IMG/VR virus record: IMGVR_UViG_3300027143_000001
Span: 32,001-96,000 of that record
Direction: 5' to 3' (one strand)
Source: a virus
Length of the DNA: 64,000 nucleotides
Part shown: one piece after another, positions 1,913 through 64,000 of the stretch
Layout of the letters: every line of letters begins with the position of its first letter
Position numbering within the stretch: position 1 is the first letter of the stretch
Program-made: the position numbers and the translations under genes
The notes under the pieces: model-generated
Databases searched by the model: none
What the model was told of the DNA's origin: nothing
The model's input: the letters and a program-made list of their open reading frames with translations, nothing else

Positions 1913-4900
1913 TATTTGGTATTTGTGTATGTCTGCCTATAGTAGAGATAATCAGCGAAGAAAGTACGTGACGTGGTACCAACAGCTTTTGCAATATTTA
2001 GTTTTGCAACTATTGTTTGTGATGCACCCGTTGGTATGTTAGTACTATGCGTTGCCACAGCCACAGCCATGTCGTTAATAAAGTATTGTGCAGAATTACC
2101 TGCAGCATTGATGACGACCTTTAGTTTTACCCATGCACTGTTTGACACTGCCACCGCCGTAGTAGTCTGTGTTCTCACAGAGTTTGCGACGGAAAGGCAC
2201 TGCCAGTTGGCAGAAGCGACCGATCCATTGAGTGTGCCACCCTCATCATAAGTAAAAAATACACCATTGGTTTCTGCGGAATTGGTGGCAACACTACCAT
2301 ACCCTATAACAATACGGTACCTCTCAGTAGCGGTACTCAGAATTGGTATAAAAACCGATGTTTCATACACCATCTCGCCACCACCAGTAATCAAAAAATT
2401 AGATGCAGTGGTTGTGCCAAAAATACCAGAAACACCGGTAGCAGTTGTACCTGTAGCAGGCTGAATAAACCCTTGTTGGTTGGTAGCCCTAACAGTAGGA
2501 ACCGAACTTGGTACAACGGTCGCGCCAGCACCGCTCCAAAAAGCTGTATGACCTGAACCATCAGTACCGCCTGATGTAGAAACCGTAGTTAAAAAATCAT
2601 TGAAAAATTCGTAACCGTATTTTGAACGGTCACCATCAAACACAAGTTCATTGCCTGATCCCAATAGCGTATCACCGTGTATACTTTTGATGTTGGTACC
2701 AGATACCAGTGCAGCCTGTTTACCATTGAACGTGTTCCAGTGTGCAGCAGACAAGTAACCGTCAGTTGTGGTAGTGGCTTGCGTAATGCTGAATACCCCT
2801 GTGGTGTTGTTATACTGAACAGGTGCTGTTGCTGACAAGTCTGTCAGTGCAATGCCGCCACCAGGTGCCGTCTGGAATTCAACTTCACCAGATGCGGGAT
2901 CAACCAGCGTCAGCACGTCTCCCGTAGAAGCAGATGAGTAGTTTAGCGTTTTGATATATATACCCGTAGGCATTACATCAATACCTGCAGCTCCACTGGC
3001 ACCTGATGCAATCAGTGTAATATAAGCGTCTCCTCCACCAAACACAGAGACCATGAGACGAGCTTGTTGCACACTATCGTCTACGTTTATATCCACAAAC
3101 TTGGTGGAATTGAACGAGTATTTACCAACGTTATCCCAAAAAAAGTCATATCCTGCCACATCAATGTTGTTGATCTGGTTGAGTAATGCATTGTTAGTTA
3201 TTACATCCTGCAAACCATACTGAGGCATTTCAGGTATTGATTGAGTAGACAATACACCTGCACTATCTGCAACCACCATTCTGGTATCTATTCCTGCAAG
3301 CACACGAAATTTTACCAACCCTGTTACCAGGTCCATGGCATAATGTGTCAGACCTGTTGTTGCAGTAACTGTAGGGTTGTAGTAAAACCCTGTGAACGTT
3401 GAAGTACCTGTTGTGTAGTTCAACGTTGGCATCAGGTTTATTCCATAGTTGTCAAGACCTGTAGTATTAACTGTGTTACCAATTGCATCACCTGTAAAGA
3501 TTTTAATCAGTGACTGTCCTCCAGTGTGTATGGTACCGTTGTTACTATAGGTAGCATTAAATGCAAATACAGATTTGATAGCAGCACTTGATGCAAATCG
3601 TAAGTCTCCTATAAAAGTCAGAGCATGCGCCCCTGCAGCATTATATGCACTTTGTCTGGTGAATCCATCGGCAGTATGCGATATATGCATCTGATCACGA
3701 AAAGAGTGTGCACCAGTTCTAATGTCTATACCGTAGAAAATACCTTGTGCTCTGACAGATCCGTTGACATCCAGTTTGTAACCGGCATCTGTTGGTGATG
3801 AGGATCCGATGACTACATTTCCATTGGCAAATATCTGCTGCCTTATAATATCCTGTGTTCTGAGCTCTAAGTTTCCTGTGCTGTATTCATTTGACAACAC
3901 CACGTTGAGTGTAGCGTTGTTGTAACCCAGGTACGATTTAGCAGAAGGAGAAAGTGTTGTCTGGTTTATGTAAAACTTCATAAACCCGCTGCTGGACTCC
4001 CTTTCAAATACCAGGTTGTTTGCTTCTGTTCTTAGTCTGGTCGCTGTACCTGCATATATAGTACTGGTAACACCTGTTGCAGTTATACCACCTACAGTAA
4101 TTGTGTTTAAGGTAGTGTTTCCCCTGGTTGTTACACTATTCAGCGTGTCTGCCTCTGCTGTAATATAACCAGCAGTACTGTGATCACCCCATCCGTAAGC
4201 TGTATTCCAGTTTGTAATATCTGTAGATGATATTGCTGCAGCAGCACTTGCCGTAAAAATCGGGTCTGTCTCTGTAAATGAAGTGATAAATCCAGCATCA
4301 TTGGTAAACTGACTAAGTGCTGTAGGTTTGTTCAGAATTTGTGCTTCACCTGTAGTAGCATTCCAGTCAGAAAGAATCTGGCGCAAACGATTACCTACGC
4401 CCAGATCTGTCCAATAAGCATTGCCACCTATAACAGGTGGTACACCATCGTTGTTAGCAAGTGCCGAGTATATATGACCCTGGTAGTACACCAGGTCACC
4501 TACTTCATACTGTGTTCCGTAACCGCTAAAGTGATAGCTGTCCAATTGTGTGGCAACTTTAAGTGGTGCGGATGCATTTTCCAGATTAGTAACACGACCA
4601 TCAATATCTGATGTCTGGCCATAAATGGTTACAATATCACCCTGTATCCCGGTTACAGCAGTTTCCAAGATGCTTACACTACCCTGCAGGTTAATGATAT
4701 CTGCTAGGATAATATCAATGCTGCCATAGATACTAGTGACATCCCCCTGTAAGGTGGTGATGTCGCCCTGTATATCAATGATGACCTGGCAGTTTAATAG
4801 CTCTGTGCAATCAATGCCACCGCCACCTGTTGTCTGAATGACCAGTTCACCACCTGTATAAGTTGCAGTACCGGTGACGTCACCTACTAATTTTAACGTG

Positions 4901-50780: not shown

Positions 50781-51455
50781 TTAAGGGCGTTCTATGTGTT
50801 TGTTGTCACTGGCAGCGTCCTGTGGGATCTGCAACAGCATCATCATGTCTTTGGCCACAAGCTGTTCAATTTCTGCAAACAGGAACTCAGGCACATGCAT
50901 TTCTTTATCTTGTATGTACTGGCAGTTGTCAGCAGGGTCACAGTTGTAGTGAGACACGTCTCCCTCAAACACACCTTCCACGCGAACAGCGTCCCAGTCC
51001 ATGTTAGGGAAGTACAGGTACCCGTTAAGGAACCAGTAGTATTTTTTCTTGTTGTACTTGAAGTTCTTCTGGCGGCTCATTTGTTCAAAGCTTACCGGGT
51101 AAGTAGGCTGCAAATCTTCTGAGAGGTCAATTGAAGTAATACTTCTGATAAGCGGACCCCAGTAGCCTTCCATAGTAGCAGGAAGTTTCTCTTTGCTGCG
51201 CTTAAAGTAGCAGCCGGTATCAACACCGCGACAGCCTGCTTGAGCTCTGTCTACGTCAATAAGCTCTACAAAGTCCAGCGTCTGAAAGATGCTGTTAAAC
51301 TTCATGAGCTTGTTCAGGTTATCCTGGCGACGCATCAGCAATTTAGCATGCTTCATCACCATGGAGTAGATAAAGCGGTCCGTCATAAAGGCGTCCTGTC
51401 TGGTAGCCTTATACTGGTTACGCACGCGGGATATTACTTCTCCAATGGTTATCAT
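50781..51455 (-). CDS. Ring / tail tubular protein (224 aa)
   Basis: RSKEKLP...YYWFLNGYLY...VRVEGVFE pattern; synteny with the IHF-like and ring genes. Confidence 0.65.
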   Translation of the reverse strand: MITIGEVISRVRNQYKATRQDAFMTDRFIYSMVMKHAKLLMRRQDNLNKLMKFNSIFQTLDFVELIDVDRAQAGCRGVDTGCYFKRSKEKLPATMEGYWGPLIRSITSIDLSEDLQPTYPVSFEQMSRQKNFKYNKKKYYWFLNGYLYFPNMDWDAVRVEGVFEGDVSHYNCDPADNCQYIQDKEMHVPEFLFAEIEQLVAKDMMMLLQIPQDAASDNKHIERP

Positions 51456-52033
51456 AGGTCAAATTCGTTGTAGTTCTCAAGGGTTATGGCGTCCTGTTTG
51501 GTCTGCTCCATCGCCTTGATATTATCGCGGTAGACATAGCTGATCTTCTTGTGAGGGTCAACCATAACATACCGTTTCCAGTACTCAGGATAGGTGCGTC
51601 CGACTTCACGCTTGAACGCGCGTGTGGGATTGAATGCCCAAAGTTCATGGTGCTTGAAGCGGTACTTGCTGCCGAATGTCGTATAGAAGATCTTGGCCAG
51701 GTAGTTATCACTCTCCCAGTTGCGGTGTTGGACAACCTTGCGGAAGTCTGCGCTTAGCTTGAAGTCCACATTTTTAGACTTCTTGGGCGGACATGTTCCT
51801 ATGAAGATGTGGCCCAGCTGGTTGGGTAGCTCAACCCCGTCACGTACATCAATGGCCGTTTGCCATACAATACCGTTGAAGGTTTTGATTACCTCTTTGA
51901 TCTCCTTGTCATTCAGCACATTACAGCCTGGGACCTTTTCCCGTAGCTGCTCAATAAATGCCGCGTTCAACATTCCAGACGCACACTTCCTGTAACGGGG
52001 TGCGTGCAAATCTGGTTTCTTTGCTGCTTTCAT
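51452..52033 (-). CDS. IHF/HU-like DNA-binding protein of crAss-like phages (193 aa)
   Basis: Basic protein with EVIKTFN...DGVELPNQLGHIFI...FNPTRAFKR; canonical position before the ring genes. Confidence 0.6.
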   Translation of the reverse strand: MKAAKKPDLHAPRYRKCASGMLNAAFIEQLREKVPGCNVLNDKEIKEVIKTFNGIVWQTAIDVRDGVELPNQLGHIFIGTCPPKKSKNVDFKLSADFRKVVQHRNWESDNYLAKIFYTTFGSKYRFKHHELWAFNPTRAFKREVGRTYPEYWKRYVMVDPHKKISYVYRDNIKAMEQTKQDAITLENYNEFDL

Positions 52034-58546: not shown

Positions 58547-59113
58547 TTAGCAGTTACAGGTAGAGCAACATCCGCTCTGGTACTTTTTCAACAGCTTCTG
58601 TGCGTAGGCAAGCATGTTCACCGCATCTTTTGGCGAGTGACAATATTCAGCCTTTGCTTTGGCTGCTTCTAAAAACATTTTGATGTAGCGCAGGTCATGC
58701 ATTTTATCATGCTGCTCAGGAGTGGGCTCACACGCTGCAAGCTGCACTTTGCACACTTCCTTATAGTAGGTGTTCAATGTAGCAGTGATTCTCAGGTGGT
58801 AGTATTCCACGTACACCTTGTCATTTGGAGAAACACTATACTTGATGGTGTAAAGACCGTCTGGCAAATCTGCCACGGCAGGATTGTTCACCGGCATCAG
58901 TCCCAGGTCATAAGCAGAAAAGTTCTTGCAGAATCCAGGGGTTAAATCCTCTGTGATGTATACAGGCACTGTATAGCCAGGAACATAGATATCCAGGCGC
59001 TGGCAATCCACGTTCAATCCTTGTGCGTATACAGAGGCGTCGCAGATGCGCAGGATGTTCTCACACGCTGTGTCTGGAACATCTAGGGATAAATGGTGTT
59101 TAAGTGCGGCCAT
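58547..59113 (-). CDS. Structural protein, possible tail hub / fibre-docking subunit (188 aa)
   Basis: LPDGLYTIKYSV motif, Cys-rich C-terminus (CCSTCNC); first gene after a terminator and promoter motif. Confidence 0.5.
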   Translation of the reverse strand: MAALKHHLSLDVPDTACENILRICDASVYAQGLNVDCQRLDIYVPGYTVPVYITEDLTPGFCKNFSAYDLGLMPVNNPAVADLPDGLYTIKYSVSPNDKVYVEYYHLRITATLNTYYKEVCKVQLAACEPTPEQHDKMHDLRYIKMFLEAAKAKAEYCHSPKDAVNMLAYAQKLLKKYQSGCCSTCNC

Positions 59114-61164: not shown

Positions 61165-61865
61165 TAGTTATTTCCTGTTGCGTTGGTTTTGTTACGTTGA
61201 TACTGTGTGATAGACTCAATGTCTCCAGCCAGTATGCTTGCAGCGTCATCAACAAGCATCTCTGCTACATCATCCTTAAACTCGCAGGTTACGTCTGCTG
61301 TAACAGCTTGTCCTGTGTTCAGGTTTATGCATCCTGCAAACTGTACGTCTATGGGTTTGCGGTAGTAGGTAAGCTTTGTGTCAGCAACTGTAAACTTGTT
61401 GTTGTGATAAATTCTGAATTTGTTACCCTGTAATGTGCAGAAGGTTTCTCCCCACTCTGCACTGGGGTTTCTCAGAGAATCCACCAGCAGTTGACTAACA
61501 TCTGCAACCGGTGCCAGGTATACACCGATGGCACGGTCCGGGCAGCAGTCTGTGTGGCTCTTGGCACTGATACGTTTGAAATACAAGTAGTCGGGTGGGA
61601 GTACCTGCGTTTCAAAGTATATCAACTGGTTTGCACCAGTAAGCGGGGCTTCTACCAATAAACGTTGCAAGTCATCGATCAGGACATCAGAAGACTCATC
61701 GCCCTCCTTGGTCTGGTTAACACCATGAACCTGGCGTCTGACAAACTCCAGTTGTGCTTTGTTGAACGCTTCCGCGATCTGCCAGCACTCGATGTTGTCA
61801 TAGTCCATAGAGGCCAACTTATTGAGGCGCTCCTTTATCTTGATCTGTAACAGTGCGTTGTTCAT
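61164..61865 (-). CDS. Conserved crAss-like ring / head-tail connector protein (233 aa)
   Basis: IAEAFNKAQ...IDDLQRLL...LPPDYLY...LTYYRKP...TCEF pattern; second gene after the MCP gene. Confidence 0.65.
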   Translation of the reverse strand: MNNALLQIKIKERLNKLASMDYDNIECWQIAEAFNKAQLEFVRRQVHGVNQTKEGDESSDVLIDDLQRLLVEAPLTGANQLIYFETQVLPPDYLYFKRISAKSHTDCCPDRAIGVYLAPVADVSQLLVDSLRNPSAEWGETFCTLQGNKFRIYHNNKFTVADTKLTYYRKPIDVQFAGCINLNTGQAVTADVTCEFKDDVAEMLVDDAASILAGDIESITQYQRNKTNATGNN

Positions 61866-62878
61866 CAGTTATTCCACATTTTCTCTACGTTCTTTGTTAA
61901 GTCCATCAGGATCTCCTCGTTCAAAGGATTCTTCAGGTACTCAACCACATCTGAAGGATTCTTACCAATCATTGTCGCACTCTTCATGTGATAGATAAAA
62001 CCATCACCACGGGTTGCAATCAACTTGTACAGGTTTGCATCCTTTACAATGGCGCGCAACTTAAGCGTTTCCATATCCAGGCCGTTTACGTCCAGGAAGC
62101 GCTGTGCTGTCTTCTTCTTATCCTTCTCAACCGTTTCACCGTTGATATACTTATCCATGTTATCATAGAGTACGTCAAGCGGAGTGGTTTTACGATACTG
62201 TGTAGAATTGGGATCAACAATCTTACACACGTAGAACAGCTTATTGGCGTTCTTGTCAAATAATTTCTGCAATTCAGCCAAAGCTTTGTTGCGTAATTTC
62301 TTCACTTCAGTTCTGATGGAAGCGGTCTCCTCAAACTTGTCTAAGTAGAATTTAGCTCCAGGACGTCTGCGTGCTTCTTCAAGGCTTGGTGCAATCAAGG
62401 AAAATCCTCCAGCTTCAATAGCCTTAAGCTTGATCAGATCGTGTGGGTCTTTGATTGGATCTAAGAACACAGGATCATTGCCCATGCGAATCACAATTGT
62501 CTCCCAGAACTTTGCATTGTCTGGTCTAAGCAACTTGACTTTGTTCCAGAACTCCGGATCCTTTGGATCAATCACGTTAGATACCAGTTCTTTTTCAAGC
62601 TGCGCTACAGTGACGCGAATCTGATTGATCTTTGCTTCACGCTCATCGTCATCCAGTTCTTTTAGTTCTGGTGCAAATTCATTGAGGCCCGTCATGTAAC
62701 GACTGATACCATTAATGGTCAGACAGATTAGCGGCTCCTCGTGAAAACAGTTTTCAAACAAGGCCATGTTGTAACGCTGTAGACCCATGTTATCAGCAGA
62801 GGTGTCTACAAAAGGTCGGATGCTTACTTGTGCACCCGTCTTCAATGAGTTGTGTTTCTCAATCAAAGTAACTTCCAT
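61865..62878 (-). CDS. Conserved crAss-like protein following the MCP gene (337 aa; true start ATG 62878)
   Basis: MEVTLIEKH... start preceded by an A-rich leader; FLDPIKDPHDLI and VVEYLKNPLNEEIL motifs. The track's 26-aa extension runs into structured RNA. Confidence 0.7.
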   Translation of the reverse strand: MEVTLIEKHNSLKTGAQVSIRPFVDTSADNMGLQRYNMALFENCFHEEPLICLTINGISRYMTGLNEFAPELKELDDDEREAKINQIRVTVAQLEKELVSNVIDPKDPEFWNKVKLLRPDNAKFWETIVIRMGNDPVFLDPIKDPHDLIKLKAIEAGGFSLIAPSLEEARRRPGAKFYLDKFEETASIRTEVKKLRNKALAELQKLFDKNANKLFYVCKIVDPNSTQYRKTTPLDVLYDNMDKYINGETVEKDKKKTAQRFLDVNGLDMETLKLRAIVKDANLYKLIATRGDGFIYHMKSATMIGKNPSDVVEYLKNPLNEEILMDLTKNVEKMWNN

Positions 62879-62904
62879 AAAAATTTTTAGTTGGTTTGGT
62901 GTTC

Positions 62905-63090
62905 TTCTGCAACATTGGTGGGGCATTGCTGCCTTTAAGCTCCTGAACCACGTCACGGTTGTTGCTTCTCAGGAGTACCTGAACCTTTCGGTCCAGGCTT
63001 GGCTGTACATTACTAATGCACAGAGGGAGGTGGTCATAAGTTAGCCTGCAAAGACCAGGAGGATTTTAATGCCCTCCTGGTTTGCAGTAT
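62905..63090 (-). ncRNA. Candidate structured RNA (five stems, GNRA loops, possible pseudoknot)
   Basis: Stems at 63046-63087, 63003-63023, 62978-62997 (GAAA loop), 62940-62975 and 62922-62933 (GCAA loop). Mismatches in the 63003-63023 and 62978-62997 stems resolve as G-U pairs on the minus strand. Confidence 0.6.
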
Positions 63091-63104: not shown

Positions 63105-64000
63105 TTAGAATGAACCTCCAGTGATGGGGTTGCGCATCACGATTTTGAGAACTTTGGTTGGGTCCTTAACCCAGATAGAAGGCATCATCTGAGTCATGAA
63201 TACACGGTAACCGTTGAAGTTACCTACAGAGGCAAACCCTTGAGAGCGACCCATGTAGTCCATAGTACCGTTTTGATAGAACCACTTCAACTCGCTGTCC
63301 CACTTCAACTTCAACAAGAAGATGTTGTCGTTGGTGTTGTCAGTGATGTCGAACACGATAAAGTTGTAAGAAGACAATGGGAAACCGTCAATGATTGGGT
63401 TCTCCACATCGTTAGTGTGTACGTTGTCAAAAGCAGGGTTCAACACAAACTTCACGTTTGCCAAGAATGGGATAGTGTAGCTGGTGAACGCAAACCCGAA
63501 GTTCAGGTCCATAGCGTTGTTACCAGAGATAGCACCAATACCGTTCTTAGACATGTCTGTGAACAAAGAGTTGTTCTGTGTAGCACTTGCACCTGCGATG
63601 TTGAAGGCCTCTTGCTTGATCGCCTCGTTAACCATACGCATACCGGCCATACCAGTTTGAACGATGATCTGACGAGAAGGATCTGGACCTTTGAAATCAA
63701 CCTTACCATTGTAGAAGTTGAAGATCTCAGAGCGGAACAATTCCAAAGAGAAACCATTCTTGTTGTAGATTCTCTTGAACGAGTTGTCCAATTGATCCCA
63801 CAAACCTACTGACAAACGAATGTCATCTGGTCCGTCTTGCTTGATTCTTCCACCCTTACCCCACATCAGGTAAGTTTCAATGTCATTGGCAATCTTGCTC
63901 AAGTGAGCTGATTCCATCTTAGTAACGAATGTTCTGGTCAAAGAACCATTGTCATACGCCTTCTTGATGTAATCTTTACCAAGTTTAGAAACCATTGCAT
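63105..64000 (-). CDS. Major capsid protein (HK97 fold, crAss-like), C-terminal part; 5' end lies outside the window
   Basis: LMWGKGG...GLWDQL, IIVQTGMAGM, NPAFDN, SIWVKDPTK motifs; the frame is open at the window edge. Confidence 0.85.
   Translation of the reverse strand, partial: AMVSKLGKDYIKKAYDNGSLTRTFVTKMESAHLSKIANDIETYLMWGKGGRIKQDGPDDIRLSVGLWDQLDNSFKRIYNKNGFSLELFRSEIFNFYNGKVDFKGPDPSRQIIVQTGMAGMRMVNEAIKQEAFNIAGASATQNNSLFTDMSKNGIGAISGNNAMDLNFGFAFTSYTIPFLANVKFVLNPAFDNVHTNDVENPIIDGFPLSSYNFIVFDITDNTNDNIFLLKLKWDSELKWFYQNGTMDYMGRSQGFASVGNFNGYRVFMTQMMPSIWVKDPTKVLKIVMRNPITGGSF

Follow-up and report, generated by a model that had tools for sequence, protein, structure and literature searches.

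What is the densely structured RNA that follows the major capsid protein gene of an uncultured phage and precedes its downstream neighbor, and what could its role be? The 64,000-nt stretch that was analyzed (the window) belongs to a 109-kb IMG/VR phage contig, and the features described here are encoded on its minus strand. The intergenic gap of 226 nt extends from the capsid stop codon (TAA, 63107–63105) to the ATG of the next gene at 62878. According to the ORF list, the 3′ part of the capsid gene occupies 63105–63995; the gene extends beyond the window end and encodes 499 amino acids in full. The protein matched Pfam Crass_capsid (E = 6.8e-32) and PHROG 11589, major head protein. Because of the Pfam match, the source can be assigned to the crAss-like phages. 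The downstream gene (61865–62878) encodes a protein of 337 amino acids and turned out to be the constant 3′ neighbor of the element in the relatives. No family match was found for this protein in PHROG, Pfam, and PDB sequences, its AlphaFold model had a pLDDT of 40, and the ESM Atlas gave hypothetical viral proteins only. A sequence-only reading of the locus had offered a cis-regulator, a processing element or ribozyme, or a structural RNA. The evidence favors the second of these options: judged from sequence comparisons, positions 62909–62975 probably form a minimal HDV-like ("theta"-type) self-cleaving ribozyme of a flipped-core subclass, which would act as a processing site after the capsid gene.

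The structural observations were confirmed. A region of 241 nt folded in silico at −76.6 kcal/mol, compared with −56.8 ± 4.4 kcal/mol for 200 dinucleotide shuffles (z = −4.5), and none of the 200 shuffles folded equally well. All stems listed in the sequence-only reading were present on the minus strand, i.e., the hairpins H1 (63087–63046), H2 (63023–63003), and H3 (62997–62978), the outer and the inner stem, and the GGCA-GCAA-UGCC hairpin. The statement that the element is not a tRNA also held, as ARAGORN detected neither a tRNA nor a tmRNA in the window locus or in the loci of the relatives. The suggestion that AAG/CUU pairing closes a three-way junction had to be given up, because the AAG is not conserved in relatives.

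The core comprises 67 nt (62909–62975), and its assignment rests on covariation, a table of key positions, the theta layout, and a descriptor search. P1 is formed by 7 bp between CUCCUGA (62975–62969) and UCAGGAG (62946–62940) and is followed by J1/2 (62968–62966). P2, the pseudoknot, pairs GCAACA (62965–62960) with UGUUGC (62914–62909). The 3-bp helix P3 (ACC/GGU, 62959–62957 with 62949–62947) carries the 7-nt loop L3 (GUGACGU, 62956–62950), and P1.1 consists of a single pair between C62939 and G62954. The optional hairpin P4 (62933–62922) precedes J4/2 (62921–62915) with the candidate catalytic C62918. The strand order, P1-P2-P3-L3-P3′-P1′-P1.1-(P4)-J4/2-P2′, corresponds to the nested double pseudoknot known from HDV-like ribozymes, and from this fold the cleavage site is predicted between A62976 (N-1) and C62975 (+1). 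A sequence-constrained descriptor, in which +1 and P1.1 were left free, had one match in the genome, at this site, and none in 300 shuffled genomes. A structure-only descriptor yielded about 0.6 matches per shuffled genome and therefore has little meaning by itself. A weak match of model R1 elsewhere in the genome (G000:5944) was rejected as a second copy; it is a terminator-like hairpin.

Relatives were collected by searches with either flanking protein. This yielded 160 related loci, in 150 of which both genes are adjacent and separated by a gap of at least 143 nt. About 50 unique gaps have the conserved core in common with the window. The core pattern matched 63 viral contigs, and the same 337-aa gene always follows it at a distance of 70–95 nt. 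The capsid gene was found upstream in 58 of these contigs, that is, in every contig for which the fetched DNA extends far enough. Some relatives carry an additional small ORF behind the capsid gene; there, the element remains beside the downstream gene, and thus, it belongs to the 5′ side of that gene. In several relatives (L027, L031, L038, L039, L124, and others, with gaps of 440–630 nt), a small ORF between the capsid gene and the ribozyme ends with KYKKC and the stop codon. The same gene pair is found in the nearest cultured relative, Leptolyngbya phage Lbo-JY46, with a 64-nt gap in which no core motifs were seen by eye. Ten matches in bacterial genome contigs were rejected as ribozyme copies; their number does not exceed the chance expectation, the flanking genes are missing, and model R1 does not recognize them.

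The more than 60 related phage contigs contained 43 unique core versions with covariation in every helix. In 30 relatives without P4, 94.9% of the positions in P1, P3, and P2 were paired, and pairing fell to 23–46% in the control, in which the partner strand was slid by 1–3 columns. All seven P2 pairs had changed on both sides, the variants including GCAACA/UGUUGC, AGUAGU/ACUACU, UGUAAU/AUUACA, and UAUAAC/GUUAUA. The pseudoknot, proposed initially as a possibility from one sequence, is thus real. In 22 P4-bearing relatives, including the window, 97.4% of the cells were paired, and double changes occurred in P1, P2, P3, P4, and P1.1. The P4 hairpin is carried by half of the relatives. The architecture is nearly constant: P1 has 7 bp in 41 of the 43 unique cores and 6 bp in the other two, J1/2 has 2–3 nt, P2 has 6–7 bp, and the 3′ strand of P1 directly abuts P3. 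P3 is ACC/GGU in 37 cores and GCC/GGC in 6, and L3 has 7 nt in all 43. Loop positions 2, 6, and 7 are invariant, and so is the G25 equivalent. P1.1 is G-C in 41 cores and U-A in two, and the adjoining U·U is invariant. J4/2 reads ACYAA with an invariant C; the candidate catalytic C was found within AC[CU]A at a distance of at most 9 nt from P2′ in 41 of the 43 cores, and in the two remaining cores P2 has probably been parsed wrongly.

The closest known RNAs are the theta ribozymes, the minimal HDV-like ribozymes of Caudoviricetes (Kienbeck et al. 2024, PMC10879173). Their segments are given there as P1 of 6–7 bp, J1/2 of 1–3 nt, P2 of 7 bp, P3 of 3 bp, L3 of 7 nt, P3′, P1′, P1.1 of 2, a short linker, J4/2, and P2′. 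The order and lengths of the segments are the same in the capsid-gap element. They match throughout in one P4-less relative, which is parsed as CTCCTGA-GA-AGCAACT-ACC-T-TG-ACGT-GGT-TCAGGAG-CT-TTAAA-CTAGA-AGTTGCT. The likeness extends to the letters, with ACC/GGU or GCC/GGC in P3, ACGU as the tail of L3, and CUAA or CCAA with the C first in J4/2. Both groups are phage-borne, and most predicted hosts are Bacteroidota. More than 80% of the published theta ribozymes are from gut phages (PMC10879173), whereas the capsid-gap elements stem from IMG/VR records of uncultured crAss-like phages. Furthermore, a cleavage site at most 5 nt from a tRNA 3′ end is the mark of the tRNA-associated theta ribozymes, whereas the capsid-gap element has no tRNA nearby and is fixed in the gap that separates the capsid gene from its downstream neighbor. 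In that paper, 526 theta copies not beside tRNAs are left without an assigned function.

CPEB3 and HDV ribozymes resemble the element in the nested double pseudoknot, the 7-bp P1, the 3-bp P3, and a J4/2 of C-N-A-A; they differ in having a G1·U wobble at the cut site, a long P4, and a eukaryotic or viroid-like context. The L3 sequence of CPEB3, UUCACGU, is one base off UUGACGU. In the active CPEB3 ribozyme, P1.1 is composed of one G-C pair plus U-U (PMC4836649), as in the capsid-gap element. A further parallel is offered by the HDV-like ribozymes of R2 and L1Tc (PMC6765202), which lie in the 5′ UTR of an ORF, are retained at the 5′ terminus of the RNA that is translated, and free the ORF from an upstream co-transcript, as the capsid-gap element might do by analogy. 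They belong to eukaryotic mobile elements and have the canonical G1, whereas the element described here lies in a phage structural operon.

Database searches had a bearing on the claim of novelty. No Rfam family was found for the window, a 601-nt close-up, the loci of 18 relatives, or a type B locus (see below). Nothing matched at gathering scores, and at E ≤ 10 there was only a weak sRNA match on H1. The Rfam HDV ribozyme models, which do not score pseudoknots, gave no match even at E ≤ 10. Nevertheless, the fold and the core agree segment by segment with minimal HDV-like/theta ribozymes, and therefore, the RNA is novel as a variant and in its context and not as a new kind.

The variant departs from two rules of the HDV-like family. 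In all 43 cores, the +1 nucleotide is a C paired to G, in contrast to the G·U (or G-C) pair with G+1 in HDV-like ribozymes. For HDV, the G1:U37 wobble has been described as specifically required (PMC1874588), and the theta sequences compared from Supplementary Data 2 of PMC10879173 all begin with G. P1.1 is flipped relative to HDV-like ribozymes, as a G of L3 pairs with the C after P1, and the second pair is U·U. The first base of L3 is equivalent to U20, the partner in the Mg-binding G25·U20 pair of HDV; it is U in 33 cores, G in 9, including the window copy, and C in one, whereas the G25 equivalent does not vary. The N-1 base is A in 24, U in 10, and C in 9 of the 43 unique cores and never G, which is the worst N-1 base for HDV (PMC1874588).

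The flipped core is not confined to the capsid gap but was found in at least 20 other phage loci. A wider scan was performed with a pattern consisting of P3, L3, P3′, seven free bases, and CUU, and more than 111 stretches were among the matches listed. MAFFT lost the P1/P2 register across unrelated loci, and per-sequence parsing and flank shuffles were used instead. Among the matches listed, 26 of 50 sites outside the capsid family had a perfect P1 together with a P2 of at least 6 bp, compared with 0.7% for shuffled flanks. The 20 unique non-capsid sequences among these matches have unrelated P1/P2 letters; 19 of them start with C, and all but one have an ACUAA-like J4/2. The listed non-capsid copies are intergenic and come from other large phages; often they precede an ORF by about 50 nt. 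Copies with G+1 and the same L3 and P1.1 abut the 3′ ends of tRNA-Met (L239) and tRNA-Arg (L253, L255), and one C+1 copy (L283:10440–10496, minus strand) begins 1–2 bases downstream of the CCA encoded with tRNA-Asn and ends immediately upstream of tRNA-Thr. The unrelated P1/P2 sequences, the many loci, and the tRNA-linked copies indicate that the flipped core is a recurrent subclass and not a decayed one-off. The C+1 loci comprise L241, L243 (two copies), L244, L251, L254, L257, L261, and L264–L267, as well as L271, L274, L276, L279, L282, and L283. The C+1 copies lie between small genes, and some of the host phages carry amber-suppressor-like tRNAs.

The region between the capsid stop and the core is less uniform. 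H1, a long hairpin directly after the capsid stop, is not followed by a U-run, and no terminator was called anywhere in the window, in accord with the initial remark that a U-tract is missing. In L023 and L044–L049, a U-run follows the H1-equivalent hairpin, which is thus terminator-like there. H1 is missing in L035, L043, L106, L113, and L132, and the ribozyme core is retained in these relatives. Downstream of H1 lies a pyrimidine motif (63025–63035), GACCACCUCCC in the window and CUCCACCUCC in relatives, that is conserved in the alignment. The CCACCUCC / CUCCACCUCC motif has exactly the sequence of the anti-Shine-Dalgarno core of 16S rRNA. Nearly all type A relatives keep CCACCUCC 5′ of H2; a conserved pairing partner for it was sought, and none was found. 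H2 is a 9-bp hairpin, which was present in every relative when each was folded separately, with differing sequences. H3 has 8 bp and a GNRA cap and ends 2 nt before the predicted cut. All relatives (54 unique upstream regions) have a stable hairpin of varying sequence that ends 0–3 nt 5′ of P1.

These observations can be combined into a working model. We infer that the element is transcribed together with the capsid gene within a long late message, that the RNA folds into the nested double pseudoknot, and that it would cut itself between A62976 and C62975. H3 would shield the ribozyme from upstream pairing and would become the 3′-terminal hairpin of the upstream product, so that the capsid mRNA would be left with the three 3′ hairpins H1–H3 and a 2′,3′-cyclic phosphate. 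At the start of the downstream mRNA there would be a 5′-OH and the compact ribozyme fold, followed by the A-rich leader. In this way, the very abundant message for the capsid protein would be uncoupled in its fate from the virion genes behind it, and expression would be affected. Hundreds of phage HDV-like ribozymes away from tRNAs are without an assigned job (PMC10879173), and with its fixed site in more than 60 contigs the capsid-gap element lends itself to a direct test of a role in cutting a structural operon. If the element does cut, the criteria by which HDV-like ribozymes are sought are too strict and have overlooked a whole subclass; if not, a ribozyme fold has been adopted for another use.

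Such an adoption is the most serious alternative. The HDV-like fold might have been retained and cutting lost, leaving a rigid 5′-UTR knot against 5′ exonucleases or an aid for ribosome loading without a Shine-Dalgarno sequence. The C+1-G pair in place of the required G1:U37 pair and the varying U20 equivalent (PMC1874588) would fit this explanation, as would the position of the element, which is always in the 5′ UTR of one gene, before an unstructured A-rich leader (62879–62908). A Shine-Dalgarno sequence is absent from this leader and from all genes of the phage. In addition, an IRES-like role has been described for HDV-like ribozymes, and those of R2 and L1Tc are thought to aid translation (PMC6765202). 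However, the candidate catalytic C and the G25 equivalent are invariant in diverged phages while the adjoining linkers drift, the same flipped core occurs at a tRNA 3′ end, a place in which no role other than cutting is plausible, and a hairpin is located just before P1 in all relatives. We therefore regard a fold that no longer cuts as rather unlikely.

Still less probable is a regulator that binds a ligand or protein, i.e., a riboswitch or a translational operator for a phage protein, and merely has an H-type pseudoknot topology in common with HDV. The conserved loop and junction bases and the 5′-UTR position would be in line with such a regulator, and an alternative pairing of 12 bp between H2 and P3/L3 could form in the L008 subgroup. 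In L008–L014 (at about 4560–4640), it would join CACGUCAGGGUA, the 5′ arm of H2, to UACCUUGACGUG in the P3/L3 core, possibly as an inhibitory alternative fold, but this pairing is absent from the window and from most relatives. The pseudoknot had been noted about 30 nt before the ATG, and the leader between them indeed has 30 nt in the window and 25–57 nt in relatives; at this variable distance, the start site is not masked. A riboswitch that masks the start site was accordingly rejected, because the ATG spacing is variable and the leader is unpaired. An operator specific for one gene is also at odds with the sequence-level match to theta ribozymes and with the copies in unrelated gene contexts and beside tRNAs. 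The simplest explanation, 3′-UTR hairpins plus a leaky capsid terminator with a pseudoknot that is chance complementarity, could draw on the terminator-like H1 and its U-run in some relatives. It is practically excluded, because compensatory changes were found in every helix, including P2 and P1.1; moreover, in relatives with additional ORFs behind the capsid gene the element keeps its place beside the downstream gene, and several relatives without H1 keep the core. Taken together, the self-cleaving ribozyme is the reading we prefer.

Sister clades, the capsid proteins of which are about 75% identical, contain a different conserved three-way-junction RNA (type B) in the same gap, which is as well supported as the ribozyme core and which we count among the points against the ribozyme reading. 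It was found at L057:4541–4608 and also in L065, L066, L071, L081, L146, L153, L156, L157, and L161. A 7-bp closing stem surrounds a 9-nt strand, UAYGCRNRC, and two hairpins with the palindromic loops UGAUCA and YUYGCAA. In the alignment of relatives, pairing amounted to 97.8%, and 8 pairs had changed on both sides. The exchange of GCA/UGC for GCG/CGC suggests, from the sequences, that the 9-nt strand forms a pseudoknot with the second loop. The type B RNA had no Rfam match; it is superficially tRNA-shaped without a D arm. At the position of CCACCUCC, type B relatives have a CCCUCCC-type motif.

A broader proposal, which we put forward only tentatively, would cover both RNAs. The flipped-core RNAs may be an active subclass that cuts before C and punctuates crAss-like mRNAs, thereby setting capsid-to-accessory ratios. 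The sister clades may have swapped in the unrelated three-way-junction/pseudoknot RNA for the same job, perhaps as an unrecognised ribozyme or as a substrate of RNase P/Z.

Several additional features of the gaps were observed. Type B relatives with gaps of 1–1.9 kb have further ORFs inside. An extra module is located just after the capsid stop, 5′ of the type B RNA, in L066, L067, L081, L146, L157, L079, and L148 (e.g., L081:4520–4590); its stem ACUCAG/CUGAGU encloses GGAUAGCGGMCACCAG-loop-CUGG and CUAAAACACCC, and it had no Rfam match. The short gaps of L052 (4459–4601) and L050 (4459–4620) contain a tRNA-like element with a 7-bp acceptor-like stem and one hairpin. In L052 it has a perfect T-arm, GGGUUCGAAUCC, and ARAGORN calls no tRNA.

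Two motifs near gene starts were also noted. AACCAAC, which lies in the leader of the window at 62896–62890, is kept 10–15 nt 5′ of the ATG in the gaps of almost all relatives. It was also seen at other gene starts and has 17 occurrences on the coding strand of the genome. The 14-nt motif TTTGTAAATTCTTA has two copies in the genome, at about 52058 and 59157 of the window on the minus strand, each just upstream of a gene start (genes 51452–52033 and 58547–59113), and may be a phage promoter.
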